A stretch of 64,000 nucleotides of DNA from Coriobacteriia bacterium (GCA_009781115.1 WQYT01000001.1:13413-77412), one strand, 5' to 3'. Positions 11,569 to 63,989 are shown, counted from the first letter of the stretch. Notes: generated by a model from the sequence alone, not told the origin. Made by a program: numbers and translations.

Positions 11569-12594
11569 CTACTCCCCGCGCCGCCAGATAGGGAGCTTTT
11601 CGATGATGAGCGCATGGGGGGCCCGCTTTGCCCGCAGCCCCCGGCCCAGATCGGCCTGATAGCTGGCAGCGGTCAGCGCGCCCGCCAGCTCAAGGTAGCG
11701 CGCCTGGGGCAGGCGCGAAGCCTCCGCCGGAAAGGCATCCAGCAGCGCGCGGCGCAGGACGCGGCGGATCATGACCGGGTCAAGCGTTGCCAGCATGTCA
11801 GCGTCCAGCATCAGGCGCTGGCCCTCATCCTGCTCTTGCGCATCGCAGAAGTCCCGCACAAAGCCAGCGGCCAGCTCATCAAGCAGCGCATCGTCTTCTG
11901 CCAGCAGGTCCATCGTGCGCTCAAGGTTAGCGCGAAACGCCGGGGCAAGCTCCTCTGCAGCCGGCACGATCCGCGCGCGAATAAACGCGCGGGTCCGGGT
12001 AGTATCAGTATTGGTCGCGTCCTCGCACCAGTCCTGGTCCTGTGCCTGCAGGTACGTGCGCAGCGATGTGCGGTCGCAGCGCAGCAGCGGCCGCACAATG
12101 CGCCCACGCTCAGGACGGATTGAAGCCAGCGCACCCGTCCCGGAGCCAAAAAGCGCCCGCTCAAAAAAGGTCTCAACACGATCATCAAGTGTGTGAGCGG
12201 TGGCAATGCGCCCGGCTTGCGGGTCCGCGTCCAACGCCGCGCACAGCTCATCGCAGAGCTCATCTGCCGCGGTGTAGCGCAGCTCGCGCCCCAGGTCCTC
12301 AACGTTGCGCTTCTCCTCTGCAGCCCGCGCGCCCACGTCAAGATGGCGCAGCACGCAGGCATAGCCCAGCCGGTCGCAGAGCTCAGCCACAAACGCCTCG
12401 TCCCCATCAGCCGCAGCGCCACGCAACCCGTGATTAACATGCAGCACACGAACGCGGTCCGGCGCCGGCGTCCGCCCGCCAAAAGCGCCGCCCGCCAAAA
12501 GCCGCAGCAAAGCGACCGAGTCCCCCCCGCCACTGACCATCACCACCAGCGGAGTTACAGCATCAAAAAGCTCTGTCAAAAGAGGAAATTCCAT
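11569..12594 (-). CDS. tilS: tRNA(Ile)-lysidine synthetase TilS
   Basis: PP-loop VMVSGGGDSVALL; conserved tilS-hpt-ftsH neighbourhood. Confidence 0.85.
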   Translation of the reverse strand: MEFPLLTELFDAVTPLVVMVSGGGDSVALLRLLAGGAFGGRTPAPDRVRVLHVNHGLRGAAADGDEAFVAELCDRLGYACVLRHLDVGARAAEEKRNVEDLGRELRYTAADELCDELCAALDADPQAGRIATAHTLDDRVETFFERALFGSGTGALASIRPERGRIVRPLLRCDRTSLRTYLQAQDQDWCEDATNTDTTRTRAFIRARIVPAAEELAPAFRANLERTMDLLAEDDALLDELAAGFVRDFCDAQEQDEGQRLMLDADMLATLDPVMIRRVLRRALLDAFPAEASRLPQARYLELAGALTAASYQADLGRGLRAKRAPHALIIEKLPIWRRGE

Positions 12595-12684
12595 ACTCTA
12601 GAGTATAAAGCATCCACCCCTCATCACTGCGAGCACGGTAGTTCCTGCACATTGACGCTCATCATGACCGCACAAGGAAAATAA

Positions 12685-13440
12685 CTACACTGGGATTCTT
12701 TCACGTAATACGAAATTGATAATAATGAAACTCAAAATAACAAAGATAGCCGCAGCGATTACGAGAGCATGATAGGTAGGTCGATTGAGAGATATTGGTT
12801 TTTCTCTTTTCCTGTTAAAGATAACTATGCACAACGCAAACACGCAACCAAAGAAAAGTAGATAATGGGGCCAATAGGACACAATGGCCTCCTTAATAGT
12901 AAGAATCAGGCCTGAATAATTGAGGTCTTCAACAATTATATGAAACGACCAAGCAAAACGGCAAATGAAGGCGACAATGCTGCCTACCAAACAGCTCAAA
13001 GGATACGGTTTGCAAATAATGCTTGTTCCAAAAACAAACCCAATAGTAAAAACAGCAAGACCGCCTAATACATATGCAAACGTCGGAAATACAAAAACTG
13101 AACCGGGCAGCGTGGCAACTTGAAATAGGTCGAACGCAACATGAAGAAAAATCATGCAAAGAAAGGCAGCGGTACCAAAAACAGCAGGCAAAGCAAATCT
13201 CTCAAATACAGACGAAAGCTCCTTCTGCTGAATAGTATCGCAATCACCAGCATGCTCAATACTACCTGATTTCGAACTACCTTCTCTTTTACCTAACATT
13301 GGAAACCTCTCTAAAAACATATGCAGAAGCTTATTATAACGAAACATAGGAACTGAGTAACCATAAGCAGTCGCTTTAGCGAATTTCAGGTTGCCCTGAC
13401 CGTCATAAGTAGTGATGACATCATTAAATGAGACAGGCAT
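12685..13440 (-). CDS. Hypothetical polytopic membrane protein (AT-rich island gene)
   Basis: ~5 predicted TM helices; low GC; N-terminus contains TTYDGQGNL, resembling a YD-repeat fragment. Start 7 nt after the upstream gene stop. Confidence 0.5.
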   Translation of the reverse strand: MPVSFNDVITTYDGQGNLKFAKATAYGYSVPMFRYNKLLHMFLERFPMLGKREGSSKSGSIEHAGDCDTIQQKELSSVFERFALPAVFGTAAFLCMIFLHVAFDLFQVATLPGSVFVFPTFAYVLGGLAVFTIGFVFGTSIICKPYPLSCLVGSIVAFICRFAWSFHIIVEDLNYSGLILTIKEAIVSYWPHYLLFFGCVFALCIVIFNRKREKPISLNRPTYHALVIAAAIFVILSFIIINFVLRERIPV

Positions 13441-13447
13441 ATCTAAG

Positions 13448-14116
13448 TCACTTCTTGATATTGGCGTTCTTCACAAGCTGTGCCACCAGCGCATCTATAG
13501 CCGTTGAGCGAGCATCGTTAAGGTAGTCTGCCTTGATTTCATCTTTCAGTTCTTCAAAGCTCCCGGCTCCTGCATAGCGATCCTTATGCGAGTTATAGTA
13601 GGCTTGCAGCTTTGCGTCAGAAGCTGAAGAATCAGGAACAAGGGATTTGGTAAGCGCAGCTATCGTCAGGTTATCAGCAACAGCGGTCTTGAGTTGCGCC
13701 TCTGTCATTCCTGCCTGCTTGAGTTTATCCTGCAATTGAGCGTCAGTACCATAGCTTTTAGCCAGCGAGCTATACGCTGCATCAATAACTTTGCCAGAAA
13801 TTTTAATCCCCTGCTTCTTGGCTTCCTGCAATAAAAGCTGTTGGTTGATAGCAGCATTCAGATTACGCTGATCAACATCCTGCTTACTTGCCGCTCCTCC
13901 ATTAGCATCAAAGATATCGGGAGTCTGCGAAAGTGGGAAAGCAGTCTGCTGATCAATATCTGCCTGCGTAATAGCCACCCCATTGACCTGAGCTACTGTC
14001 TTTGTATGTTGGCGCAGAAGCAGATAGGCAGTAAGAGCGCCTGCAGCAAGAACGACTATCGCTATTGCAACAACAATCCATTTATTGCGTTTGTATGATA
14101 CCCGTTTCTTTTTCAT
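13448..14116 (-). CDS. Membrane-anchored SurA_N/PrsA-like (chaperone-like) protein
   Basis: Start at MKKKR (ATG 14116) preceded by GGGAGG RBS; single N-terminal TM helix; VNGVAITQADIDQQ resembles the SurA N-domain; low GC. Confidence 0.55.
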   Translation of the reverse strand: MKKKRVSYKRNKWIVVAIAIVVLAAGALTAYLLLRQHTKTVAQVNGVAITQADIDQQTAFPLSQTPDIFDANGGAASKQDVDQRNLNAAINQQLLLQEAKKQGIKISGKVIDAAYSSLAKSYGTDAQLQDKLKQAGMTEAQLKTAVADNLTIAALTKSLVPDSSASDAKLQAYYNSHKDRYAGAGSFEELKDEIKADYLNDARSTAIDALVAQLVKNANIKK

Positions 14117-14157
14117 GTGGTTGCCTCCCAATTATTATCATGCTTAACAGGTATTGA

Positions 14158-15015
14158 TTAAGGCCAGTCTTTTGGGTTTATTGAGGCAACTCTATCATCT
14201 GGTGTTTCGTAGATATCACCTACCACAAAATTCTGTCTTTCTTTTTTATACGCGATATCTACAATGCCGTCTCTTGTCACATGTGCAGAATAGCATCGAT
14301 ATTCTGGGGAAAACACCGCTATGCTTATATTTTGAACATAGTAATTTGGCGTTGCTGCGTCACAATCAAAAAAGTTGATCTTTGTTGCGGGGTCAACCCT
14401 TTCGACATCCACGAGGGTGGAGCTTCCTTTCACAAAAGTGTCAAAATCCCGAAAACGTAGTGTCTTTCCGACAAACATACAACCAGCCGCTTGGTATTCG
14501 CCAGAGCTTGCTTGAGTGTAAAATACAAAAAGACGCCCACCAGACAAGCTATCATGCGCGCTGTAAGCCCATGAGCCACTATACGGCCCATCACTTATAC
14601 TGAAAGGTCGTAATTGAGAGACAGATACAAAACTCCGCACGTCATTGAGCGTGACTTCATGACCCGCGGAATCAAACGCACCTTCGAATGTTATCTTCCG
14701 CATAAGACCGAGTATATTTGTTTTACTCTCCCGAGAGGCCAACAATGCCCGATTAGGATCTCTCGCAACAGTTGGTGTTGACACAGTAGATTCTATAGAT
14801 TCGCTTTTCTGTTTTTCATTTGACACCTGATTCTTCTCTGCCCTGTTGTCTTTGCCCGGGCCTCCACATCCAGATGAAAGTATCATCAACAGTAAAATAA
14901 TTATGGCTCCCGTTCTTGCAATTTTCACAATCACACCGCCACGATATCTCGTCTTACGGAACAACTCTTGCTCCAGTTCGCTTCCCGCACCATCAAACAT
15001 TTCACACCATCCCAT
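14158..15015 (-). CDS. Putative lipoprotein, candidate immunity protein for the upstream RHS toxin
   Basis: Signal peptide with lipobox LSSGC; low GC; begins 63 bp downstream of the RHS stop on the same strand. Exact start codon uncertain. Confidence 0.5.
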   Translation of the reverse strand: MGWCEMFDGAGSELEQELFRKTRYRGGVIVKIARTGAIIILLLMILSSGCGGPGKDNRAEKNQVSNEKQKSESIESTVSTPTVARDPNRALLASRESKTNILGLMRKITFEGAFDSAGHEVTLNDVRSFVSVSQLRPFSISDGPYSGSWAYSAHDSLSGGRLFVFYTQASSGEYQAAGCMFVGKTLRFRDFDTFVKGSSTLVDVERVDPATKINFFDCDAATPNYYVQNISIAVFSPEYRCYSAHVTRDGIVDIAYKKERQNFVVGDIYETPDDRVASINPKDWP

Positions 15016-15078
15016 CTGTCACGTTCGGCAAAGCGTATATTAACACCAATACTCTACAGCCTTTATCGAGAAAACGCA

Positions 15079-18000
15079 CTATTGCCGCTTAAATTTTATC
15101 GCTAAATAAAGCGTCTTGCTATTGTAAATTATTCCGCCATTGTTTCCATAATTCTTACCCCATACATCGGGATTCACGCTAAAATTATGATACTGAATTT
15201 CGGATATCGGACTTGAGATATGTCCATGTTTTTCTGACCAATAGCCATAGCCATGAGTATCTTGTTTCATAAAATGAAAATCAAACGAACATACTCTTAT
15301 TGCGATTCGATATTCGTTACTATATGTTGAAGCGTTTTTGCCTGAGATTGCTCTTGCTTTGCTACTACCTACTTGTTTGATGACTGTTTTTCGAAAATTT
15401 TCCACAGTAGATAAAGAATCATTAGGATATTTACAACCTGAATGGATATTCATAGCATATGAATAGCAATTAAAATTAGCGGTAGGCTCATTAATCCATC
15501 CCCATGTTTTTGGTCCAACAATCCCATCAACAATCAACCCATTCATCGATTGGAATTTCTTTACCGCAGCTAGCGTATTTGTCCCAAAAATACCATCCTC
15601 TGCCAAAGCCTTGCCGTTTGAACCCCGTACTGTAAAGGTATTCAATCTCCTCTGAAGCTTTTTTACAGTTGCTCCTTGACTACCATATCTCACCGTGGAA
15701 TCAAGCCCGCTCGGATCCGTACCGCCCACCGGCTCTCCCGCACAATACATATACGGGCTCTTCTCGCCGTCTGCTTTGACAGGATCGCGGCTGATGAAGC
15801 TTGCGGTGGTCGGGTCATAGTAGCGTTGGCTGCAATAGTACAAGCCAGCCTCAGCATCCCAAACATAGCCCGCATAACGCAGAGGTTGTGCTGCTGATAT
15901 CTGCTGAGCCAGATCAAGGGCAATAAGCGATGTTGCAAATTCTGTGTCGGAAGTAATGTTTCCAAAAGCGTCATAGTCGTAGCGAGCAAAGGTATCCCCA
16001 TTGGTGTCTCTAAGCTCGCGTACGTCTCCTCTGGCATCACTGACAATCTCGAAGTTTACTGGAGCTGTCGTCGCAGTCGTAGTAGTGCTGTAGCAAGCCC
16101 CAACGGGTGTTGAGCCTGATCCATACAGATAGATGATGCTTTGAGTCTCTGTAGAAGATTTTGCGGCTAGCGAGACAAGCTTGGTACCGTCATAGAGGTA
16201 GTTGGTAGTATTGTTTCCTGCCGTCTTTGAAAGCCTCTGGCCTTCTGCGTCATAGGCGCAGGTGAACTTCGCAGGCCCGGTACCGCCATAATATCCTGAA
16301 ACCAGTCTCTGACCAGACCAGCCATAGGTGACCCCATGGTCATCTGATATTCTTCTGCCAAGCCCGTCATAGTTAAAAGAAAACGCTGTCGATACTATAA
16401 AGCCACCGCTACTTGAAGTACGTCCGGCAAGCCTTCCTGCCGTATCATAAGAGTAACTTGTCGCGCCTGCTTGAGTAATATCTCCGGTTGTCGCATTGTA
16501 AGCATAAGCCGTTGTAGTACCGCTCACTTTTGCCGAGGCAAGCTGGGTTCTGTCTGCCGAGTAGGTATAGCTGGCAGACTGAGCACCTAAGCGGCTATAG
16601 CTTGAAGATGTCAACTTTGAGTCATTAGCATCATAAGTATATGTTTTTTGTCCTGGTGCAGAAAGATTAGTGTCGCCTGTCAGGTTACCCTGACTGTCAT
16701 AGCTAAGCTGAGAGCTTTGGGCGCCAACGCTTCTGGCAGTCGGTCTTCCACCCTCGTCATAGCTGGTGTTTGCAGCACTTAGACTTGAACCAAACTTAGG
16801 AGTAAGCGTATCAGAAGCAAGAAGCGCTCCGTTGACAATGCTTGTCTGTGTTGTGCCGTCAGCGTAAGTCTCAGTCTTAGTCGTTACCGTCTGCGCGTTG
16901 ATTCCTGCCCCTGTGTTTTGGTAGGTAAAAGCCTGCTTGTAACCAGATACTGACTCATCGATTACGCTGGGGCGCCCTGCGCTGTCAAAGGTAGTGGCGA
17001 TATCTTTGAGCACCACTGTGTCTTTCAGTTCCTTTTGCTCAGTTATTCTTGAAAGGCCATCGTAAGTATAGTCAACCTCTGTGCCATCGGGATTGACCTG
17101 CTTGGTTACCCTTGAAGCATTATCGTAGGTCGTAGTAGTAGGATCATCGGCTCCGACTTTCTCGGTAAGCTGGTTGCCCGCCCTATCATAACTGTAAGTA
17201 GTAGTAACGCTATCAAAGTCAGTTTTTGAGAGAATATCTCCGCGTACATTGTAGATATTGGTAGTAGCCGTCTGCGTTCCCATTTTTGTGGTAAGCAAGC
17301 GACCAGCTAAGTCATAGGTAGAGACAGTCGTTATATCAGGCTTGCCAGAGGCGCTTTGCTTATCGGAGATAACGTTGCCAACCAGATCGTAGTCGCAGGT
17401 ATCAGTCACGCCACCATTTGTTTGTGTTATAGCATTACCCGAAACATCATAGGTCGTGCTCTGATCAGGTTGCCCCGTGGTTTTAGTTGAGGTAACGTTT
17501 CCGGCTGCGTTATAGGTTGTTGTAGTTGGCGCGCTATACGGGGTAGTAGTCGTGCCAAGCACATTGCTGCTTTGTATCTCTTGACCAGATGCATCATATT
17601 TGGTCGTTGTAGTCACTCCGTCAAGAGTTCCTTCGGATTTGGCTTGAATAACGTTTCCTGCCAGGTCACAGGTCGTAACACTTGCGCCTTGCTCCGAATT
17701 TGAGTCTGAAACAGCTTCTCTCCCAAGAACGTCATGAGTCATGGTCGTGATCTCAACGGCTGTTCCCGCACTATCAAGACTTGAAGCAGTAAGAGTGTTT
17801 CCTTGTGCGTCGTAGGTAGTCTTTGTCCAATTTGATTTGACAGACGAACCAGAAGGTAGCTGGTAAGTTTCGGTCACATTACCCAAGTTGTCATAAACAT
17901 TGGTAGTAACAAGCCCGGTCTTATCTGTTGAGGTAAGCAGAGAGCCTGCAACGTCATAGGTCGAGGTATCGGTGATAATCCCGCGCCCATCAGTATTTGA

Positions 18001-21000
18001 GAGTCTGTTGCCACAGTCATCAATGGCGCAGCTCGTGGTGATATCTTGCGGCGTAGCGCTTGTTGCCAGCTGCACTGAATGCTCAATGGTTTTCTGGGAG
18101 TTCCCGTCACAAGCGAAGTCTGAGTAATCCTTGATATCGAAGATATAGGAACCATCAGCATTCTTAGAGAGGGCAGTCTTTTCCTGAGTAGTAAAGCCTT
18201 GGGTGTTGTAGCTGTATTCAGTGCGCTTGCGCGCCCCATTGGCAGCAATCAGCTTTTCTGTCACAAGTATGTTTCCTTTGCTGTCAACGTCATTCCAGGT
18301 CACAGCTCGGGCGTTATCGATCATCTTAATCAGGTCGTTTGCGCTGTTGTAGTAGTACCAGGTCTCAAGCCCTGCCTTGTCGAGAGCGTAAGTCTGATTT
18401 CCCCTGCTGTCATAATCTGACTTGGTGGCGCCTGCCACCCCTACTGAAGCGGGGCAATTAGTAAAGGTAAGCCCATCGGCAGATGCAGATACCGGGTCTT
18501 TAGTCACGATGACCTGGTTGTAGGCATTGTAACTGGTATTTGTTCCATAAAGCTGGTCGACCGAAGCAGACGCCCATATCTCCTGCCCTGTTGGATCAGT
18601 AAGAAATACCTGTCTTTCTTGCCCGGCAGCAAAGCCACCTTGAGCTGTGGCCGAGCCTTTGTCCAATACAGCCTGGCCCACATTGGTTGAGCGCTTGGAA
18701 TAGGTCATGGTAGCAGGAGCAGGCGGGGCGCCTGAAGTGGTATGAGCAAAGCTCACTGAAGCGGTACCGTAAGTGATCGTAGCGCTGTCTTGTCCCCTGC
18801 TGACAGAGGTGATGCGCCCGGAAGCATCTGAAGTAAAGGTGTCGGTGACTTCCCGTGGGCTGCCTTCATATTCAGTCACGGTCATATTGTTGCCACTGAT
18901 TGCATAGGTAAAGGTCTTTGAAGCAGATACGCCTTCTAAGGTGAGGGTATAGCTTGTTGCAGAGTCCTTTGCCAGCTCCAACTTCTGCCCATTGGCAGCC
19001 GTGATGATAGCTCCTCCCGATCCATAACTGTAGGTAGTTTTGTTGTTATTGCGATCACAATCTGAAGTGATCTTTCCGTCAGATCCAAAGAGATGCTGGG
19101 CTCCATCGGCATCCTTTAAAGTGAACCCTGAACTTGTTTTTGTCAGTGTCGAGAACATGCCGGCAGGTGAGAGGTAGGTATCCGTGTTCTTGGGGTCCTG
19201 AGCAAAGAGAATGACCGTTCCGGCGCCATCCGTATACTGTACAGCACCCGTAGAAAGCGTAGTCATATTCTGCTCAAAGCTAAAACGCCAGCCTTTAGGA
19301 AGATAGCTTGAGGTAGAAGCCATATCTGAGAGGTAGGTACGGCTTACTGCGGCAGCAGGACCATAGGTAGCGATCGTAAGGTCGTCAGAGATGATACGGG
19401 TAGCCGCTCTGCCCTCTGCGGCCTCAACAGATTGCCCTGCAACAGTTCCTAACTGCGTATAGCCCGGGTTGGGATTATCAGACACTCTGACGGTACGGTT
19501 ATCCAGCGTGGGCGATACCACACTCGCAGAATAGACGGCGGTCTCTCCATTGGCGTCATAGGCCGCTACCCTGAACCAGTAGTTGACGTTGTTTTGATAG
19601 GTGGTCGTCTTTGATTTGCGATAGATCGCATTAGGGTTATCACGCAGATCAAGTCCGGATCCTGCAAAGGTATCGACATTGGTTCCGCTTGAGAGGTTGC
19701 CGCCAATAAAGCGCTTGGAGGTTGCGTCATAGCTAAACGACACCATGCACTTGGTAGCCTGGTCTGACTGGAGCCATGAATCAGTAAGCAAGTGGCTGGA
19801 TAGCGAGACTTTGTAGGTACGCGCAAGGTTAGTGCTCGTCCATTCCATCAGATAGAGGTTATATCCATCGGAGGTCACGCTGTCAAAGCTTCCAAAGGCT
19901 GTGGTGTTTGCTACAGAGATACTCCAGTCCTTTTCGAAGTGCCCGGTATCGTTGTATTGACGCACGCTGAATCCCTGACCCACTTTGCCTACTGAATAGA
20001 TATGGGCGCCATCACTGGTAAGCATCACCCCATAGCCAGTAGTTCCTGCTGCGATATCAGTACCCGCACTATAGCTGAGCAAAGGTTTATCAAAAGTGAA
20101 GCTTAAGCGACGCGCTGTAGTACTTTCAAAGGTTGATTCCGCGTAGGCAGCGATAGTGGTAGCGTTTGCTGTTGATGCTGTGATGGCGCCGTCATAGAGG
20201 ACCCCGTTAAGTACAAAGGCGCCAAGAGACTGCGGAACGCTGTCTGTAGTGCCTAAGATAACGGGACTTCCATAGGCAGGTTTTGCGTTTGGATAGTTTG
20301 TCTGGGTAAAGCGTACCCATTTGGCAGGTCCTTTGTAGGCGCCCCAGGCTTTGACATAGATGTACTTGCCATCAGGCACAACAATTCCGGAACCTCCGGA
20401 ACCCCCGTTGGTTCCGGTGGTATAAGGGGTTCCTGCTGGATAGGTAAGCGTAGCAGATGAGACTCTGGTTGCAGGGCTGGGACTTTGGCCTGCTGTGTAG
20501 GGGTTACCGGCATAAGTTCCATCTGCCCCATAGCCAGCTACGGTAGTATCGGTGGGATATAAGCCTGCGCCAGACGTTGACCAGGTGATGTTATTGCGCC
20601 CGAGCGTAGTCCCTACCTGACGATAGCTTACCCCATCATAGGTATAGATATGATAACCCGTTGCGTGAGAGTCAGCGCTCCATGAGAGCTTGACCGACCC
20701 CCTGCCGGCATCAGGATAGTCGTTTTTGTTATCAGCAACGCCATCTTTGTTCTTGTCGGTCTCTTTGAAGTAGGCGCCACTGGCTGAAGTTGTAGCGGAC
20801 AGGTTCTTTACGGGCTGCACCAGAGAGGAGCAGGTGATCGTGATATAAGGGGCATTGCCGCCAGCCACAGAAGAAAAAGCATGCCAGTTATTAGTAAGCG
20901 GTGTTGCCTCGGACTCATAGAGCACCAGCCCATAGAAAGCTGTACCTGAGGTAAGCGGGCCGGTAAGCGTTGATGTGATGTCATAGGTGGCCCACAGGCT

Positions 21001-22308
21001 TGTTCCGGTAATAGATGTCGAAGCAATCGCCGAAGACATCGCTGGTTTGTTGTTCCAGTTTACGTTGGTAGGAATAGCAGCTGACGCCTGAGCAAGATAG
21101 CTTGTAGCAGCAGCCGTAGTGAAACAGCGGGTTTGATAAGCGCTGAAGGTGACTTTGCTGACTGAGACCCCCGCCAGATTAGGCAGAGCATCAAAGGTGA
21201 TATAGCTACGGTATTTATTGCCCGTTGAGGTAGTACAGCCAGCAAGAAGTTCTGTTTGATGAAGCGTGGTAGTGGGGCTCACCGAGTTGACGCAGGCATC
21301 TGCAGCCACCGCAACGGTAGCCGTTGGATCGATCTTTACCGGCCATGCACGGTCTTTTGAGCCGAGCCAGTCTTCATTAATAGTAGCCCGAAAACGAGCA
21401 GAAGCCGCAGAAGAAGACAGGAGCTCCCAGGAAGTGTTGGGACAGATGCTACTGCCCGCTTGTCCTGTGCCTGAATCTTCTACAACCAGATCAGACAGCA
21501 AATAAGCGACGCTGCCGTCTGCTTTGACTAACTCCCACGTACCTTTATCTTGCTTAAGACTCAGTCCTGAGAAATCAAGCCTGAAGTCATAGGTGTTTTT
21601 AGTAGTGGGGGTATTAAGGAGCAGGGTCTCTTTTACTCCGCCTGAAAGCGCTTGATATTGCAGGGTGGTGTTGCCTGTCGGGTCAAGGTAGACGGCAGTG
21701 TCACCCAACGTTAAAGGTGAAGAAAGTTGTTGTCCGCAATAGGTGAAGGAGACGCTATAGGGAGCAGATGACGTTGTGTCCGCCGATATAGTTGCCGCTC
21801 CTGTTCCTGAGGCAGAAAAGGATGTCTTATTTTCAGTGGAAAGGGTCGTAACAGCGCCAACCGGAGAATCAGAACCTGATGCAACTAAGTTCGTCGAAAT
21901 GTCTACAAACTGATTATGATCGCCTTTGTAATGAATATCTCCTGTGGAAGCTACTATCTGTCGCTGACCATCAGAAAGCTCATAGGTCTTAGTCGTAGCA
22001 GTACGCTCTTCGATGATCTCACGCACACGTTTAGCATGGGGATCCTTAACTTGAGGTTTTACAACAGCGGCAGGATCAGGAATAGCGTCAGCGGGAGCAG
22101 TATAGGTAGCTTCACCTGAGCCAAGAGGAGGGGTGGAAGCTTCCTGAGAAGGAACAGCAGTGCTCTCATGTGAAGCCGCCACAGCAGAAGCAGGAATGAG
22201 CGCCAGAAGGAGAACGGCAGAAAGGAAAAAACATAACAACCTGCGTAAAGGACTGGTAAAACAGCCCTCGTCAAATGTAGGCACCGACAACTGATTTGTT
22301 TTCTTCAT
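15079..22308 (-). CDS. Sec-secreted RHS/YD-repeat polymorphic toxin (2409 aa) with C-terminal peptidoglycan-binding domain plus Cys/His toxin-like domain
   Basis: N-terminal signal peptide; dozens of YD repeats (YDxxGN, YTYDGLSRI...); RHS core terminates PVGGTDPSGL (DPxGL). A 207-aa tail follows: PG_binding_1-like (LQRRLN...DGIFGTNTLAAVKKFQ...DGIVGPKTW) and a 137-aa Cys/His domain (NCYSYAM...HGYGYWSEKHGH). AAGGAAGG RBS. GC markedly lower than flanks, lowest in the tail. Confidence 0.9.
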   Translation of the reverse strand: MKKTNQLSVPTFDEGCFTSPLRRLLCFFLSAVLLLALIPASAVAASHESTAVPSQEASTPPLGSGEATYTAPADAIPDPAAVVKPQVKDPHAKRVREIIEERTATTKTYELSDGQRQIVASTGDIHYKGDHNQFVDISTNLVASGSDSPVGAVTTLSTENKTSFSASGTGAATISADTTSSAPYSVSFTYCGQQLSSPLTLGDTAVYLDPTGNTTLQYQALSGGVKETLLLNTPTTKNTYDFRLDFSGLSLKQDKGTWELVKADGSVAYLLSDLVVEDSGTGQAGSSICPNTSWELLSSSAASARFRATINEDWLGSKDRAWPVKIDPTATVAVAADACVNSVSPTTTLHQTELLAGCTTSTGNKYRSYITFDALPNLAGVSVSKVTFSAYQTRCFTTAAATSYLAQASAAIPTNVNWNNKPAMSSAIASTSITGTSLWATYDITSTLTGPLTSGTAFYGLVLYESEATPLTNNWHAFSSVAGGNAPYITITCSSLVQPVKNLSATTSASGAYFKETDKNKDGVADNKNDYPDAGRGSVKLSWSADSHATGYHIYTYDGVSYRQVGTTLGRNNITWSTSGAGLYPTDTTVAGYGADGTYAGNPYTAGQSPSPATRVSSATLTYPAGTPYTTGTNGGSGGSGIVVPDGKYIYVKAWGAYKGPAKWVRFTQTNYPNAKPAYGSPVILGTTDSVPQSLGAFVLNGVLYDGAITASTANATTIAAYAESTFESTTARRLSFTFDKPLLSYSAGTDIAAGTTGYGVMLTSDGAHIYSVGKVGQGFSVRQYNDTGHFEKDWSISVANTTAFGSFDSVTSDGYNLYLMEWTSTNLARTYKVSLSSHLLTDSWLQSDQATKCMVSFSYDATSKRFIGGNLSSGTNVDTFAGSGLDLRDNPNAIYRKSKTTTYQNNVNYWFRVAAYDANGETAVYSASVVSPTLDNRTVRVSDNPNPGYTQLGTVAGQSVEAAEGRAATRIISDDLTIATYGPAAAVSRTYLSDMASTSSYLPKGWRFSFEQNMTTLSTGAVQYTDGAGTVILFAQDPKNTDTYLSPAGMFSTLTKTSSGFTLKDADGAQHLFGSDGKITSDCDRNNNKTTYSYGSGGAIITAANGQKLELAKDSATSYTLTLEGVSASKTFTYAISGNNMTVTEYEGSPREVTDTFTSDASGRITSVSRGQDSATITYGTASVSFAHTTSGAPPAPATMTYSKRSTNVGQAVLDKGSATAQGGFAAGQERQVFLTDPTGQEIWASASVDQLYGTNTSYNAYNQVIVTKDPVSASADGLTFTNCPASVGVAGATKSDYDSRGNQTYALDKAGLETWYYYNSANDLIKMIDNARAVTWNDVDSKGNILVTEKLIAANGARKRTEYSYNTQGFTTQEKTALSKNADGSYIFDIKDYSDFACDGNSQKTIEHSVQLATSATPQDITTSCAIDDCGNRLSNTDGRGIITDTSTYDVAGSLLTSTDKTGLVTTNVYDNLGNVTETYQLPSGSSVKSNWTKTTYDAQGNTLTASSLDSAGTAVEITTMTHDVLGREAVSDSNSEQGASVTTCDLAGNVIQAKSEGTLDGVTTTTKYDASGQEIQSSNVLGTTTTPYSAPTTTTYNAAGNVTSTKTTGQPDQSTTYDVSGNAITQTNGGVTDTCDYDLVGNVISDKQSASGKPDITTVSTYDLAGRLLTTKMGTQTATTNIYNVRGDILSKTDFDSVTTTYSYDRAGNQLTEKVGADDPTTTTYDNASRVTKQVNPDGTEVDYTYDGLSRITEQKELKDTVVLKDIATTFDSAGRPSVIDESVSGYKQAFTYQNTGAGINAQTVTTKTETYADGTTQTSIVNGALLASDTLTPKFGSSLSAANTSYDEGGRPTARSVGAQSSQLSYDSQGNLTGDTNLSAPGQKTYTYDANDSKLTSSSYSRLGAQSASYTYSADRTQLASAKVSGTTTAYAYNATTGDITQAGATSYSYDTAGRLAGRTSSSGGFIVSTAFSFNYDGLGRRISDDHGVTYGWSGQRLVSGYYGGTGPAKFTCAYDAEGQRLSKTAGNNTTNYLYDGTKLVSLAAKSSTETQSIIYLYGSGSTPVGACYSTTTTATTAPVNFEIVSDARGDVRELRDTNGDTFARYDYDAFGNITSDTEFATSLIALDLAQQISAAQPLRYAGYVWDAEAGLYYCSQRYYDPTTASFISRDPVKADGEKSPYMYCAGEPVGGTDPSGLDSTVRYGSQGATVKKLQRRLNTFTVRGSNGKALAEDGIFGTNTLAAVKKFQSMNGLIVDGIVGPKTWGWINEPTANFNCYSYAMNIHSGCKYPNDSLSTVENFRKTVIKQVGSSKARAISGKNASTYSNEYRIAIRVCSFDFHFMKQDTHGYGYWSEKHGHISSPISEIQYHNFSVNPDVWGKNYGNNGGIIYNSKTLYLAIKFKRQ

Positions 22309-22377
22309 GAGCTATCCTTCCTTAGACGAACTCTTTTACACAGATATAGTAGTAAGAAAAGAGGTTATCTGAACAGT

Positions 22378-22423
22378 GTGAAATCACCTGATTTTCGGAA
22401 TTAGCAAATTCAGGTGATTTCAC
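22378..22423. promoter_or_regulatory. Perfect 14-bp inverted repeat with 18-bp spacer (GTGAAATCACCTGA-N18-TCAGGTGATTTCAC) upstream of the RHS gene
   Basis: Arms read directly at 22378-22391 and 22410-22423. Lies 70-115 bp upstream of the RHS ATG, just upstream of a TACTAT/TATATC -10-like region; adjacent LuxR regulator gene. Confidence 0.4.
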
Positions 22424-22479
22424 CTGTATCAAAAAAGGCTCCGCTGGTCGTATTTGGGAGAATTACATAAGCTGCTTGC

Positions 22480-23868
22480 TTAAAGTTCGCCGTTGCGGAA
22501 CTTATTAACCAGCATAATGCGATTTCTTGAACCTGTTTTTGATAAGAGCGAATTGACATGGTTTTGCACCGTGGTTGTCTTAACGCCCATTACTGCAGCG
22601 ATCTCCTCGGTGCCTTTACTGTTGGCAAGCAATTGCACGACCTCTAATTCTCGACCGGTAAACGAGGTTTTTGTTAAAACAGTTTGCTTATGTTCAGTAA
22701 CTTCCGGCTGATTCTTCTGCGGCAAAGCATCCAGGAAAATCAGAAGCACAAATACCAAAACCGCAAAAAGGATAATGGTTAACGGCAACAGAAACTCTGC
22801 CCGCCTGGCAAAGTCTGCCACTGAAAGCCCCAGCACATGCAAGTTTAAAAAGCCCTCACTGGAAAAATACACGAGCAAGCCCAAGCCTGCAATGAAGCCC
22901 TTATGCGAACGCCGCGCAGCCGCGATCATACAAAGAATATGGATAAGAAACACACAGCCTTTTACCCCAAGGTTGAGCAATAGATAAGCCATATTGTTTC
23001 CCGGAGAGTCCCCGTAAAGAAAAAGGGGCAGAAGGCAGCCCAACACCAGCAAAACAATCGGGATAGCCATGTTCAGTATACTGAATCGCTTATCTATCAA
23101 ATACCCTAAAAGAGCGCCAAAGGGAATGCGCAAAATGATAATGACCAAATAAAGGAACGGTATGCTTGCTGTCCCCCCTTGCTTTTCTAACGTTCCTGAA
23201 TTCATCACCTGTCCCAAAAGAACCAGGATGGTGAGCCCAACCAATAAAAGACCCAGACTACGCGAAGCCAAAACTCTCGATTCCAATGGATCTGGACTCC
23301 CTACGTCTTCGTTGCTTTTTGGCCAAAAATAAAACGCCGCAGATAAAAGCACCACCAAGATAAGAAACCCTATCGTAGTGATGGGTGTCTTTGGAAGAAG
23401 CGCCGATAAAAATTGGTAACCAAGTTTGAAGGGATATATCGCAAGAGAATAGAGGCTTGCAGAAATGCCGATTTTCAGCCCCCGGTTTCGCGCGTCGCCA
23501 CTTTCAAGGAAACTCACCAGCACCGCACAAACAAATAGTCCAATAATAATACCAAACCCGACAGATAGGACGATCAAAAACGACGTCCCTTGAAATGCAA
23601 GCATCCCGATACTGTATATCAGCAAAAGAATCGGCGCTAGGCCACGATAGGCGCGACAAAACTGTGGGTAGAAATGTTCAAGTAGCCCGTAAAGCAAAAT
23701 CCCCAGAGGAATCAGCTGTAGCGTAGCGTTTCCTGCAGCACTGAAACGCCCACTGGTTACATAAATAAGCTCGGCAGCGATGCCAATCGCTACCATCGAT
23801 AGACAGAGCGCTAAGAAGGGGTGATTCTTTTTACTTTTTAGCAAAAGGAGGGATTTATCGCTATCCAT
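22480..23868 (-). CDS. LuxR-family transcriptional regulator with ~10-12 TM N-terminal membrane domain
   Basis: C-terminal HTH (LEVVQLLANSKGTEEIAAVMGVKTTTVQNHVNSLLSKTG); long hydrophobic N-terminal region; AT-rich. Confidence 0.8.
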   Translation of the reverse strand: MDSDKSLLLLKSKKNHPFLALCLSMVAIGIAAELIYVTSGRFSAAGNATLQLIPLGILLYGLLEHFYPQFCRAYRGLAPILLLIYSIGMLAFQGTSFLIVLSVGFGIIIGLFVCAVLVSFLESGDARNRGLKIGISASLYSLAIYPFKLGYQFLSALLPKTPITTIGFLILVVLLSAAFYFWPKSNEDVGSPDPLESRVLASRSLGLLLVGLTILVLLGQVMNSGTLEKQGGTASIPFLYLVIIILRIPFGALLGYLIDKRFSILNMAIPIVLLVLGCLLPLFLYGDSPGNNMAYLLLNLGVKGCVFLIHILCMIAAARRSHKGFIAGLGLLVYFSSEGFLNLHVLGLSVADFARRAEFLLPLTIILFAVLVFVLLIFLDALPQKNQPEVTEHKQTVLTKTSFTGRELEVVQLLANSKGTEEIAAVMGVKTTTVQNHVNSLLSKTGSRNRIMLVNKFRNGEL

Positions 23869-24031
23869 CTTTCTCTCTCCGTTTCATCTATTTTAGAATT
23901 TTAATTTCAATATCGAGTTTTTTATTAAATCTTATTATAAAGCTTTACGTTCAGATAAAACAATTCAAATAGTCAACGGCTGGATTGCGGCGTCGCGCAT
24001 TGATGGGGATCTTTTGCCAGCCCAAACGAGC

Positions 24032-24056
24032 GACGCGCCGGGTCGTCGCGCCCTAC
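24032..24056. repeat. REP hairpin copy plus adjacent GCATTGATGNGGGTCTNTTGGCAG direct repeats (23996-24140)
   Basis: Direct read. Confidence 0.6.
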
Positions 24057-24182
24057 GCATTGATGCGGGTCTGTTGGCAGCCCCAAGCGCATACATTAAT
24101 GCGGGTCTCTTGGCGGGTCAGACGCGCGCATTGATGCAGAGCAGTTTCCCGTGCCAAAGCTAACATGAATTAATGTAGCTTA

Positions 24183-26762
24183 TTACCACTTTGTGCGGCG
24201 GTGGCGCTGGATGGCTTTTACGGCTTCGTACCAGAAGACTGAGAGGGCGGCAGCAGCGATTACCGCAAGCATTCGCGCTGGGCTCAGCGGCGCCAGCTGG
24301 AAGAGCCCGGCCAGCGGGGTGTAGAGTATGGCCGCAATGCCCACCAGCGTTGCGATGTTGACGATGCCAATCACACGGTCGCCGAACAAGTACCTGAAGT
24401 TCGCCGTAACCGGCGCGGTGTTAGAGCTGTTGACCTGCACCAAAAAGAGGTTGGCCAGAAACACCACGCAGAGCCCCATTGCGCGCGCTACCGGGGCGCT
24501 TGCTCCCGTTTTCAGGCTGTAGTAGTACAGCCCAAAGCTCGCCGCAAAAACACAGAGGCCTTGCAGCAGGCTCTTGACCAGCACCGCGCGTGACAGGATG
24601 CCCTCGCGCGGGTCGCGGGGGGGCCGCCGCATGACATCGCGCTCTGCCGGTTGGCGCTCAAAGACGATCGAGCAGGTCGGGTCGATGATGAGCTCCAGCA
24701 GCAGCACATGCGCGGGCAATAGCATGAGCTGCGCCGGGTTCAGATGCAGCAAGGGCGCAAGCAGCGCCGTCAGCATGATCGGGATGTGGATCGTGAAGAT
24801 GTAGCCGATGGCCTTGCGGATATTCTCGTAAATCCGGCGCCCGTCTTCGACGGTGGCCGTGATGGTCGCAAAGTTGTCATCAAGCAGAATCAGGTCGGCT
24901 GCCTCGCGCGAAACCTCAGAGCCCCGCTTGCCCATCGCAACGCCGATGTCGGCGTACTTAAGCGCGGGCGCGTCGTTGACGCCGTCACCGGTCATGGCGA
25001 CAATCGCGCCGTTAGCGCGAAACGCCTTAACGATGCTCATCTTATCTGCTGGCAACACGCGCGAGAAGATGTTGGTGGTCTGGACCCGCGTTTGCAGCTC
25101 GTCTGCGCTGAGCTGCGCCAAATCGGCGCCGGTGCAGACCTGATCGCTGTGCGCAATGCCGACACGGGCCGCAATGGCGCTGGCCGTAAGCCCGTTATCC
25201 CCGGTGATCATGACCACGCGGATCCCCGCCCGCTGGCACTGCGCGATATCTGCCGCCACGCCCTCGCGCGGCGGGTCGGCCAGGCCGATCAGGCCGGCAA
25301 GCGTCAGGCGGCAGTCTGCCAGCGACGCTGGCAGCGCCTCGCGCGAGGCCGGATGCGCGAAGCCCACGGCGATCACGCGCAGGCCCTGCTCGGAAAACGC
25401 GCGCAATTGTGCGGCGGCGGCATCGCGCTCTTCTGCCGTCAGGTCGCAGATCGCCAGAATCGACTCGGGCGAGCCCTTGGCCGCTACCGTCAGGCGGCCC
25501 TCGTGGACCCAGACATGGCCCATCATTTTGGCCTCATCAGTAAAGGCATATTCGCTGACAAAATCGCTGGTCGCCGATTCAAAGAGGTGCGCGGTTGTGA
25601 TGCCATGGTCCTCGCAGGCGCGCAGCATGGCTTGCTCCATCGGGTCGTAGGCTGACGTTTCGCAGGCCAGGCCCATCGTCTCATAGAGGCCTTCCGTGTC
25701 GCCTGCGGGGCTCCAGTCACGGGTGACCGTCATGCGGTTTTGTGTGATCGTGCCGGTCTTGTCCACGCACAGCACCGATATCGCGCCCAGCGTTTCAAGC
25801 GCGGGCAGGCGGCGAATCAGGGAGTGCTTTTTTGCCAGACGCCAGGCGCCCATCGAGAGAAATACCGCCAGCACGACCGGGAACTCCTCCGGGATCATGG
25901 CCATCGCCAACGTGATGCCGGCCAGGACGGAGTCGATCAGGCGGTTTTTGGGCAGCAGATCGCCCAGGTTAAAATACGTGATGACCACGGCCAGCGTGCA
26001 GAACACAACGGCAATGATGACGCAGACCTTGACGACTTTGGATATCTGCTTTTCGAGCGGCGTGGGGCGCTCGGGCGCCTCGGCGATGTGGACGCCGATC
26101 TTGCCGTACTCGGTCTGGGCGCCTATTGCGTCAACGAGGACCGTCGCCGAGCCCTGGGTAACCAGCGTCCCGGCGTAGCAGTAGTCGCGGCGCCAGTACT
26201 CTTCTGGTACGGGAGTGGTGGTGGTTGGGGCAGCGGCGTCAGTTGGGGGTGCGGGTGTCGCGTCCTCATCGGGCGCCGCGACGACCTTCCAGACGCCGAC
26301 CGACTCGCCCGTCAGGGAGGACTCATCAACGCACAGATCGCTTGCTTTAAGAATCGTCCCATCAGCGGGGATCTTGACGCCTTCGGTAATGATGAGCATA
26401 TCTCCCGGCACCAGGTCGGTACTGGGAATCTGGCATTGAGCCCCGTCGCGAATGACGGTCGCTGTTGGCGCGGACAAGCTCTTGAGCGCGTCCAGCGTCT
26501 GATCGGTCCGCCATTCCTGAAAGATCTCGATCCCAATGACGGCAACCACGAACACGAGCATGATTGACCCATCGCGCGGCTCGTTTAACAAGAAGTAGAC
26601 AAGGGCAGCTGCGATCAACAGGATGAACATTGGTTCACGCAGGATGCCCAGCGCCTTGAGCAGAAAGCTTTTCTTTTTCTCGGGACTCAGCTCGTTTTTG
26701 CCGAACTCCTTTTGGAGTTCGGCTGCCTGCTGCGAGGTAAGTCCTGTTGTGTTCATCTGCAT
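24183..26762 (-). CDS. Cation-transporting P-type ATPase (P2-type, Ca2+/Mg2+-like)
   Basis: DKTGTIT phosphorylation motif; TGDN/GDGVNDAPAL motifs; ~10 TM. Start chosen at ATG 26762 with GGAG RBS (track start 26777 is TTG). Confidence 0.9.
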   Translation of the reverse strand: MQMNTTGLTSQQAAELQKEFGKNELSPEKKKSFLLKALGILREPMFILLIAAALVYFLLNEPRDGSIMLVFVVAVIGIEIFQEWRTDQTLDALKSLSAPTATVIRDGAQCQIPSTDLVPGDMLIITEGVKIPADGTILKASDLCVDESSLTGESVGVWKVVAAPDEDATPAPPTDAAAPTTTTPVPEEYWRRDYCYAGTLVTQGSATVLVDAIGAQTEYGKIGVHIAEAPERPTPLEKQISKVVKVCVIIAVVFCTLAVVITYFNLGDLLPKNRLIDSVLAGITLAMAMIPEEFPVVLAVFLSMGAWRLAKKHSLIRRLPALETLGAISVLCVDKTGTITQNRMTVTRDWSPAGDTEGLYETMGLACETSAYDPMEQAMLRACEDHGITTAHLFESATSDFVSEYAFTDEAKMMGHVWVHEGRLTVAAKGSPESILAICDLTAEERDAAAAQLRAFSEQGLRVIAVGFAHPASREALPASLADCRLTLAGLIGLADPPREGVAADIAQCQRAGIRVVMITGDNGLTASAIAARVGIAHSDQVCTGADLAQLSADELQTRVQTTNIFSRVLPADKMSIVKAFRANGAIVAMTGDGVNDAPALKYADIGVAMGKRGSEVSREAADLILLDDNFATITATVEDGRRIYENIRKAIGYIFTIHIPIMLTALLAPLLHLNPAQLMLLPAHVLLLELIIDPTCSIVFERQPAERDVMRRPPRDPREGILSRAVLVKSLLQGLCVFAASFGLYYYSLKTGASAPVARAMGLCVVFLANLFLVQVNSSNTAPVTANFRYLFGDRVIGIVNIATLVGIAAILYTPLAGLFQLAPLSPARMLAVIAAAALSVFWYEAVKAIQRHRRTKW

Positions 26763-26778
26763 TGCCACTCCTACCAAA

Positions 26779-62618: not shown

Positions 62619-63989
62619 CTAACCTAACCGCCGCCGCCGAAGCGCACATACCCCCGCAGCACCCACACCCGCCATCAGCAACAGAACCGGCGCCAGAAAG
62701 CTGGCCGCATCCCCCGCATCAGGCAAACCCAACGGAGGCGCCGGAACTTTCACCCACACGCTACTCTCCCCATCAGTATAAGTCCTGTAGCCCGCCTTGG
62801 TAGCAGGAGTAACAAACGCTGATTTCTTACGTTTCTTCCCGCCCACCATGACATAGCTGGTTGCAGAGGTGACCGTTCCGTCGATAGTCACCTCCGCCCC
62901 ATTGTTAGCCGAAACAGCGGTATCAGTTTTTGAGATAACGTTACCTGCTACATACACCCGCGTAGGAGTACCCGTATTTTTAGTGCGCGCATGCCAGATG
63001 GGAGGTACGGTCGAAGCGATGACTGGTGTCCGTGCCGTATCAGTTGTGTTGTTGCCAGGAAGAATAGGCGCCGGGATTACGTCACTAACACCGGCGGGTC
63101 CCGTATAAACGTAGTTGTCTGCAAAAACCGCATTACCTGTAGCGGTAATCCTGCCGCCAACTTTTACCTGTGCGCCACTATCAGCATGTATACCCTGAGA
63201 CTGTCTGCCCTTTGCGGCGATATTACCTGAAACTGTTACCTTAGTCCCCTCGCCTGCTAAGACCCCACAACTATCCTTGCCTGACATAAAAATACTACCC
63301 GCCAGCGCAACACATGAGCTTTCATCCACAGAGATTGCATCCCAGGTTGCATGAATATCACCTTTCATCGTTATCTCTGCGTCCCCCCATGCATCGATAC
63401 CCGTACTGCAAGAAGCAATATCTCCCGTTAAGCTCATCTTAGTCGCACCCGAAACTTCTAACGCAGTATAAGCATTAATGCCACCTGCCACGGTAACAGT
63501 TGAACAGCTTTTGCTTTGCGGATCGGGAGGATACTGAGCCCAATCAGAGATTGCGGTATTCGATACTTTTATCTTGCCATGAATCGTAATGGTTGAACCG
63601 CCAGGGTAGATTGCATCACCCCAACCAATTGCAATAACCGAACCACCAATATCAACCGTGCAATTATCCAGGCTGAGGGCGCAAGACGACTCTCCCGAAA
63701 CTGACACGGTCTTCTTTATCGCAATCTCTGAATCGGATGCATCGACCGCAATAGCCTGTTCCCCTTTTGCGTTGACACATCCTCCCACATTGACCGTGGA
63801 ATGCCACGCAATGATACCTTCCGCGTACTCACCTGATGCCTCAATATTACCCTTAACACTAACAACTGCTTTGTGATAGGCGCCAATAGCAACACCGCTC
63901 ATTTCGGCAGCACGAGCATCCACCTTAGCGTGCGTCACCTTGCAGGAACCCCCACTAACACAGAGCGCGGCGGCGCCGGTAGATATCAC
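62619..63989 (-). CDS. Cell-surface repeat (beta-helix/adhesin-like) protein, C-terminal part with LPDAG-TM-RRRR sorting-signal-like tail; N-terminus lies beyond the window end
   Basis: Repetitive G/S/T-rich segments with periodic Cys; C-terminus PPLGLPDAGDAASFLAPVLLLMAGVGAAGVCALRRRRLG; ORF open to the window edge. Confidence 0.55.
   Translation of the reverse strand: MISTGAAALCVSGGSCKVTHAKVDARAAEMSGVAIGAYHKAVVSVKGNIEASGEYAEGIIAWHSTVNVGGCVNAKGEQAIAVDASDSEIAIKKTVSVSGESSCALSLDNCTVDIGGSVIAIGWGDAIYPGGSTITIHGKIKVSNTAISDWAQYPPDPQSKSCSTVTVAGGINAYTALEVSGATKMSLTGDIASCSTGIDAWGDAEITMKGDIHATWDAISVDESSCVALAGSIFMSGKDSCGVLAGEGTKVTVSGNIAAKGRQSQGIHADSGAQVKVGGRITATGNAVFADNYVYTGPAGVSDVIPAPILPGNNTTDTARTPVIASTVPPIWHARTKNTGTPTRVYVAGNVISKTDTAVSANNGAEVTIDGTVTSATSYVMVGGKKRKKSAFVTPATKAGYRTYTDGESSVWVKVPAPPLGLPDAGDAASFLAPVLLLMAGVGAAGVCALRRRRLG

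Follow-up and report, generated by a model that had tools for sequence, protein, structure and literature searches.

The question raised by this locus is what an abruptly low-GC (guanine plus cytosine) block of genes is doing inside a string of housekeeping genes, and what the very large Rhs protein that fills most of it could be for. The block lies in a 64,000-nucleotide stretch from a Coriobacteriia bacterium (GCA_009781115.1 WQYT01000001.1:13413-77412), and the whole of that stretch is called the window here. In minus-strand order the block encodes a LuxR-type membrane regulator, a 2409-aa Rhs/YD-repeat polymorphic toxin, a lipoprotein, a protein with a SurA_N domain, and a 251-aa membrane protein, all five of which are present as an initial annotation of the sequence had listed them. 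The explanation that best covers the locus as a whole, and one that we regard as likely, is a horizontally acquired island carrying an Rhs toxin with its immunity gene, where the toxin tip would be directed at the cell wall. The host, a member of the Coriobacteriia, is uncultured and probably lives in the termite gut.

The block differs from its surroundings by every measure of composition applied. Positions 12595 to 24182 (11,588 bp), between the stop codon of a P-type ATPase gene and the start codon of tilS, have a GC content of 47%, while the rest of the window has 60%, so the contrast with the flanks that had been pointed out is borne out. In a sliding profile the GC fraction falls abruptly from 0.62-0.72 to 0.35-0.55 between about 12600 and 23975. 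By 1-kb windows the block averages 0.475 (range 0.426-0.527) versus 0.604 +/- 0.041 for the 51 windows outside it (Mann-Whitney p = 3e-7). The tetranucleotide L1 distance between the block and the rest of the window is 0.475, to be compared with 0.127 +/- 0.017 and a maximum of 0.173 for host segments of equal size. Because GC at third codon positions (GC3) differs as well, at 0.36-0.49 in the island genes and 0.64-0.79 in ftsH, hpt, tilS and the ATPase gene, the deviation is not a by-product of amino-acid composition.

The empty site is found in the closest relative, picked by a TilS scan with one genome per species. This is the Coriobacteriia metagenome-assembled genome (MAG) Lab288P4bin85, contig L002, whose style of name is that of a termite-gut MAG study (PMC7886697). 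The L002 TilS is 80% identical in amino-acid sequence and its P-type ATPase 86%. The contig is collinear with window 28791-777 (28 kb) at 69-85% nucleotide identity, and the sole large gap in the alignment sets window 12568-24200 against 50 bp. There, only 5 bp separate the ATPase stop codon from the tilS ATG. With collinear flanks, a single gap, and two genes so closely abutting in the relative, the block is a clean insertion, and the same comparison delimits it as 12595-24182, so that the insert proper extends past the point near 23975 where its AT-rich portion stops. The comparison of this junction in related genomes had been proposed by the initial annotation, and it finds the closest relative without the block, contrary to the block being carried by all relatives; among more distant relatives, at about 50% TilS identity, the ATPase gene was not found adjoining tilS. 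We consider it very likely that the block entered by horizontal transfer, and the earlier suggestion of a horizontally acquired Rhs module thus gains support from both the empty site and the composition.

The Rhs gene occupies 15079..22308 on the minus strand. An apparent signal peptide covers about aa 1-44 (22177..22308, minus; ...LLLALIPASAVA/AS), with a charged n-region, a hydrophobic core, and an AVA/AS end. A carbohydrate-binding-type CBM96/DNRLRE domain follows at aa 329-492 (20833..21324, minus; PF24517 at 46 bits with a cut-off of 26, NF033679 at 64 bits), and from aa 960 to 2202 (15703..19431, minus) the Pfam and NCBIfam matches describe a DUF6531-like plug, a YD-repeat shell, and an Rhs core. 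The plug family PF20148 scores 23.5 bits, just under its cut-off of 24.1. The family check suggested earlier gives PF05593 at 80.4 bits in 7 stretches, along with TIGR01643 at 51.9 bits and the Rhs core TIGR03696 at 73 bits (cut-off 32.5) over aa 2112-2202. The core ends in DPSGL at aa 2198-2202, a motif of the DPxGL type at which cleavage is predicted.

Nine homologues (P0044-P0052) from related metagenomes have bodies 56-73% identical to the window protein up to aa 2201-2202, and most of them diverge thereafter. In P0044 and P0049, identity of 63-74% holds up to aa 2201-2202 exactly and there gives way to unrelated tails. An exchange of the tip directly after DPSGL, as judged from these alignments, is the classic mark of a polymorphic Rhs toxin. 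The homologous modules have a GC fraction of about 0.49-0.52 inside flanks of 0.59-0.64, and they are found between a xerC-like gene and cmk, beside copies of the insertion sequence IS66, and after ABC transporter genes. Because the sites vary and the GC is low each time, the Rhs module appears to circulate as foreign-looking DNA among these bacteria. Two fragments were seen along the way. At L057 8566-10697, 3' of P0044 and its SurA_N gene, there is an orphan Rhs-core piece with its own tip, 80% identical to aa 2085-2202. At L070 1180-3549, adjoining P0045, a 789-aa Rhs fragment with a Phage_lysozyme2 tip sits among IS21/IS66/rve transposase genes, which shows tip turnover and the involvement of insertion elements at another site.

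How such a protein would leave the cell is the next point of interest. All full-length homologues have an N-terminal signal peptide whose end resembles ALIPASAVAAS. The Tat pathway was considered on account of an RR in the n-region and was rejected since the RR is not conserved among the homologues, which favors Sec. Pfam and NCBIfam find no PAAR, VgrG-binding, LXG or WXG domain in the protein. With a signal peptide present and those domains absent, Sec-type export is the sensible route, comparable to that of WapA in Bacillus and in Streptococcus suis, and the Sec-dependent delivery proposed at the outset is consistent with this. By Pfam, the region aa 1-960 has no wall-binding repeats, CBM96 being the only domain there, and the island contains no sortase.

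Past the cleavage motif, the tip begins with a PG_binding_1 domain at aa 2211-2271 (15496..15678, minus; PF01471 at 54-58 bits), and by its position this domain belongs to the released tip. The remaining 138 aa (15082..15495, minus) form the putative toxin domain, with the motifs NCYxYA, NEYRIA, DxHFM and WSEKxG, and with Cys2281, His2345, Glu2359 and Lys2360 as the residues of interest. That domain has no sequence match in Pfam, NCBIfam or the Protein Data Bank (PDB), and a profile of the tip family likewise returned nothing useful from the PDB. A word-index protein search with the tip found nothing, the tip's own protein included, and HMMER, run exhaustively against 1.84 billion representatives, then gave 40 matches, about 36 of them true relatives and four of them repeat-protein artefacts. 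The relatives are located at the C-termini of Rhs proteins, on proteins combining CBM96 with a ricin-type lectin, and on short fragments. They have in common the motifs NCYxYA, NEYRIAxRV, DYHFM and W-S-[EH]-K-x-G, and in the family alignment H74, W86, K89, W112 and Y124 are invariant, while C10, R48, E61, D72 and G91 reach 90% conservation or more.

Several attempts were made to place this family. Pfam DUF7689 (PF24738) is matched by 12 of 29 tip relatives, the best at E = 1.1e-9; for two of them bit scores were taken, 20.7 and 21.5, both below the 22.6-bit cut-off. The resemblance centers on the NC...DYHFM region that the tip relatives have in common with PF24738, and it suggests a tip that is a divergent relative of DUF7689 and not a member of it. 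DUF7689 has no known function, and no mention of it was found in the literature searched. The Pfam models of Tox-PL1 and other papain-like tips give no match to the tip at E <= 10, nor is there a Pfam match to NlpC/P60, CHAP or Amidase. To the Amidase_6 tip of a sister Rhs protein the tip family shows no detectable relation, hhalign giving a probability of 0.2%. AlphaFold2 from the single sequence reaches a predicted local distance difference test (pLDDT) of just 31, and with the family alignment it reaches a pLDDT of 80 and a predicted template modeling score (pTM) of 0.78. In that model the Cys (C10) stands at the start of a helix (10-14) and the His (H74) on a strand (73-78). Foldseek finds no significant match for the model in the PDB, and the resemblance to a papain fold is weak. 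On balance we predict a papain-like Cys/His hydrolase, an assignment that we consider somewhat probable.

For the substrate, peptidoglycan is the favored candidate because a peptidoglycan-binding domain is part of the released fragment, because the immunity candidate is extracytoplasmic, and because sister proteins have Amidase_6 (P0044) and Phage_lysozyme2 (the L070 fragment) tips, so that wall-directed tips recur in this Rhs family. The prediction of peptidoglycan as the target is a guarded one, for which we would claim not quite an even chance.

Directly downstream of the Rhs gene is the lipoprotein gene (14158..15015, minus), with a lipobox LSSGC; neither Pfam nor NCBIfam assigns it to a family. 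Four other distinct loci have a homologue of 40-45% identity directly downstream of the same PG_binding_1 plus tip combination: L056, on a contig of 38% GC; P0047, represented by L060-62, L064 and L065; L063; and L066, where the Rhs body is just 30% identical to that of the window. Three of these four homologues had been missed by the word index and were later located via their genomic context. With the window included there are five distinct pairs of tip and lipoprotein, and an L-x-G-C lipobox is plain in three, L056 and L060 among them; the signal peptide of the L063 homologue has an atypical site, LTEC, and the tally excludes the N-terminus at L066. Because the lipoprotein follows the tip in five independent loci, it is likely the immunity protein, and because of the pairings at L056 and L066, the two genes appear to move as a cassette among Rhs scaffolds and among hosts of differing GC. 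That the locus encodes an Rhs toxin with a lipoprotein immunity protein is thus predicted with good confidence, and the lipoprotein would define a candidate immunity family that so far has no name. A separate occurrence, a sixth homologue, is seen at L067 333-2291. There the immunity-like domain forms the C-terminal part of a 652-aa lipoprotein whose gene is flanked by a BlaR1-like fragment and rpe; neither an Rhs gene nor any toxin gene is near, and the protein may serve another bacterium as an orphan immunity protein.

The next gene (13448..14131, minus) encodes a SurA_N-only, membrane-anchored protein, with a probable start at 14116 giving 222 aa, matching PF13624 at 57.6 bits. No parvulin-type peptidyl-prolyl isomerase (PPIase) domain is found in it by Pfam or NCBIfam. 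It is 81% identical to the protein encoded 3' of P0044, whose tip is Amidase_6, and 67% identical to the one encoded 3' of P0049, which has a different tip again, and 3' of P0047 a remnant of the gene adjoins an IS66 insertion. Since the gene is tied to the conserved Rhs body and not to the tip, it is not an immunity gene. The most economical reading is that its product helps a 260-kDa Sec substrate to fold, much as PrsA would, and the gene neighborhoods leave it about evenly balanced whether this candidate extracytoplasmic chaperone is dedicated to the Rhs protein. The three AT-rich genes of the initial annotation are present, and they are not a miscellaneous set: the lipoprotein pairs with the tip, the SurA_N gene with the Rhs body, and the membrane protein resembles one that follows a tip at L057.

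Put together, these parts suggest the following mechanism. The 260-kDa precursor would leave unfolded through Sec by means of its signal peptide and would fold outside the membrane with the help of the anchored SurA_N protein, PrsA-like except for the PPIase domain. The YD-repeat cage would enclose the tip, and cleavage at DPSGL would release it within the cage. Binding to a neighboring cell would fall to CBM96 and other surface domains of the N-terminal part, and the released tip would dock on peptidoglycan via PG_binding_1. The papain-like domain, by way of Cys2281/His2345(/Glu2359), would then attack a monoderm competitor by cutting its wall or some other extracellular substrate, so the tip would need no entry into the target cytoplasm. 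The lipoprotein, held on the outer face of the membrane, would shield the producer and its kin.

Of the systems to which this can be compared, the WapA type is the closest. Like Bacillus subtilis WapA (with WapI) and S. suis WapA, the protein belongs to a monoderm host and has an apparent N-terminal signal peptide, which implies Sec export, and a large YD-repeat body, and a polymorphic C-terminal toxin follows the Rhs core, with a candidate immunity gene directly downstream. The tip of B. subtilis WapA is a tRNase acting in the cytoplasm, whereas the tip here looks extracellular, combining PG_binding_1 with a papain-like domain and having a lipoprotein as its immunity candidate. It also differs from WapA in having no match to a wall-binding repeat or sortase family, with CBM96/DNRLRE in the N-terminal part instead. 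Sec export of an Rhs/WapA protein in a Gram-positive bacterium has been shown for S. suis WapA, whose accessory proteins are SecF-like and SrtB (PMC12704120), unlike the SurA_N-only chaperone candidate found here. Zhang et al. catalogued Rhs proteins with papain-like toxin tips in 2012 (PMC3482391), and the present tip resembles Tox-PL1 and other members of that catalogue in its C-terminal position on Rhs proteins and in an 'NC ... H' signature; it departs from Tox-PL1 in its later motifs, which are DxH and W..K here and H...DxQ there.

The papain-fold wall amidases of type VI secretion systems (T6SS), such as Tae1/Tse1-Tsi1 and Tae3-Tai3, whose immunity proteins are periplasmic, and the CHAP or NlpC/P60 hydrolases, differ in that the tip has no membership in these families at the sequence level. 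Delivery of Tae-type effectors is by T6SS, whereas here a Sec-exported Rhs cage is predicted. TelC-TipC of Streptococcus intermedius, which uses an LXG carrier and a type VII secretion system (T7SS), is reportedly an interbacterial toxin acting on the cell-wall pathway outside the membrane, and its immunity protein is said to be membrane-tethered and extracellular; the carrier there is LXG/T7SS and the enzyme a lipid II phosphatase, in contrast to a Sec/Rhs carrier and a different enzyme here.

From these comparisons, the locus appears to be a variant of the Sec-dependent WapA-like Rhs toxins, a well-known class, with some new parts. The new parts are the N-terminal domains, the chaperone-type accessory gene, the DUF7689-like tip fused to a peptidoglycan-binding domain, and the lipoprotein immunity family. 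A bolder proposal, which we put forward tentatively and with some doubt, is a distinct Gram-positive scheme in which a Sec-exported Rhs cage relies on its own SurA_N-only chaperone, its tips kill target cells from the outside through damage to the exposed wall, which they cut, and the DUF7689-like domain is a new class of wall hydrolase countered by a new lipoprotein immunity family. How the Sec-exported Rhs/WapA toxins of Gram-positive bacteria fold, protect their producers, and reach their targets is poorly understood, and this locus offers a simple case, with a tip possibly acting on the exposed wall, an externally tethered immunity candidate, and a candidate for a dedicated chaperone. For DUF7689 it provides a first hint of function, and it is a clean case of an island that has entered a housekeeping operon while carrying no mobility gene. 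Since the class is well known and the host uncultured, the broader importance is moderate.

The alternatives concern both the tip and the block. The tip could be a papain-like or other enzyme, such as a protease, transglutaminase or deamidase, that attacks surface or cytoplasmic proteins and not peptidoglycan, in which case PG_binding_1 would be only an anchor and the lipoprotein could be either the immunity protein or merely a co-inherited surface protein. We consider this unlikely, though it deserves more weight than the other alternatives below. The extracytoplasmic lipoprotein partner at five loci points to a site of action outside the cytoplasm, PG_binding_1 follows the cleavage motif in five tips, sister tips are Amidase_6 and Phage_lysozyme2, and the carriers that are not Rhs proteins have lectin or CBM domains. 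A toxin of the Tc type, aimed at an insect host instead of at bacteria, also comes to mind because the source is probably a termite gut and insecticidal Tc toxins also contain Rhs cages. No SpvB/TcB or TcA parts were found, and the tip's peptidoglycan-binding domain, like the conserved lipoprotein next to it and the orphan copies of this partner, is a hallmark of interbacterial toxin-immunity systems, which makes an insecticidal role very improbable. The island as a wall-targeting toxin-immunity locus has its own weak points to set against it. The signal peptide was called by eye, the window's own tip falls under every Pfam threshold, and PG_binding_1, which is missing from several tip relatives, could be a mere adhesion module. 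The linkage of the SurA_N gene amounts to three loci and the remnant, and three further loci lie too close to a contig end to show whether the gene is there. No flanking direct repeats or att-like repeats were found at the island edges, and no mobility gene lies within the island to account for its entry.

That last point touches the standing of the block itself. As the initial annotation had stated, there is no integrase or transposase, none being matched among the island proteins by Pfam or NCBIfam. If the block were ancestral and had been lost in the L002 lineage, the lack of both mobility genes and a target-site duplication would be natural, and just a single close relative offers the junction for comparison. 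Against such a loss, GC, GC3 and tetranucleotides are all strongly unlike the 52 kb of flanks, the tight 5-bp junction of ATPase and tilS in L002 is typical of an intact operon, and homologous modules, low in GC there too, occupy other sites in related genomes. We therefore hold an ancestral block to be improbable. An assembly chimera would be a thought for any metagenomic contig (the source being ENA ERZ27257292) with the block on one contig only. Both junctions fall precisely between two genes that adjoin each other in L002, and the orientation is kept; at least 5 independent assemblies have a like low-GC Rhs module in high-GC Coriobacteriia-like flanks, and the lipoprotein is found in an NCBI MAG record as well, so that a chimera is hardly credible. 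Insertion of a foreign toxin-immunity island is the reading that we retain for what follows.

The last gene of the island (12685..13440, minus) encodes the multi-pass membrane protein of 251 aa, with no family match in Pfam or NCBIfam. Over 111 aa it is 36% identical to the C-terminal part of a 399-aa membrane protein encoded after the orphan Rhs tip at L057. Its likeness to a protein that follows an orphan Rhs core and tip suggests an orphan immunity gene, and going by this similarity it is probably that.

At the other end of the island is the polytopic membrane regulator (22480..23868, minus), with a C-terminal LuxR/GerE helix-turn-helix domain (PF00196 GerE at 38 bits, aa 402-454) and an MFS_1-like transmembrane region. 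Its GC of 0.459 is island-like. The regulator had been taken as part of the toxin system; this is not upheld, as five other loci with homologous Rhs genes have no LuxR homologue upstream of them, and the gene order points to co-transferred cargo and not to a conserved partner of Rhs. Between the two genes there is an 18-bp inverted repeat, GTGAAATCACCTGA...TCAGGTGATTTCAC, at 22378..22423, 94% complementary, about 70 nt 5' of the Rhs ATG and 3' of the luxR stop codon. The spacer has a folding score of z = -3.8 against shuffles. The inverted repeat is absent from all other loci compared, including the regions upstream of homologous Rhs genes. It could be an operator for the LuxR protein or the terminator of luxR, and by way of this palindrome LuxR may control the Rhs locus.

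The repeats at the island edges had been described as REP (repetitive extragenic palindromic) elements bounding it. On the right, just past the ATPase stop codon, there are four imperfect direct repeats (CGCATTGATG..., 31 nt, spacing 60/36/35) at 23996..24157, within a spacer stretch of about 208 bp of normal GC. With up to 3 mismatches allowed, the 28-nt consensus matches the 64 kb once, and the core motif is found at 0 of 62 loci compared, so that within this range the array is local and the REP label is not supported. The array is not present in L002, its folding is unremarkable (z = -1.2), and the GCATTGATG repeats, sought in all loci compared, were seen at this locus only. On the left, the 14-bp palindrome ATACTCTAGAGTAT does exist at 12593..12606, overlapping the tilS ATG. 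It is not exceptional, since the window contains 11 perfect palindromes of 14 bp, this one included, where shuffles lead one to expect 4.8 +/- 2.1. It was rejected as a recombination site on that count and is probably incidental. No tRNA, Rfam family or relevant tandem repeat was found in or around the island, and scans for promoters and terminators were not richer than in shuffled sequence.

The flanking host genes are tilS on the left (11569-12594, minus; PF01171 at 130 bits) and the P-type cation ATPase gene on the right (24183-26777, minus). The interrupted string runs ATPase, tilS, hpt, ftsH, and all five island genes are in the same minus orientation as that string. In the closest relative, the ATPase and tilS genes, being 5 bp apart, are probably co-transcribed, and here 11.6 kb of co-oriented foreign genes stand between them. 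Expression of the essential tilS-hpt-ftsH genes may have come to rely either on read-through, which the shared orientation could allow, or on a new promoter within the 90-bp spacer 12595-12684.

Two minor features of the window remain. A second, smaller region of lower GC (0.506) is found at the right end of the window, with a 456-aa minus-strand open reading frame at 62619-63989 that has no Pfam match. The 5' part of tilS contains a perfect 16-bp tandem duplication, CCGCCCGCCAAAAGCG, in 1.9 copies at window 12472-12502.

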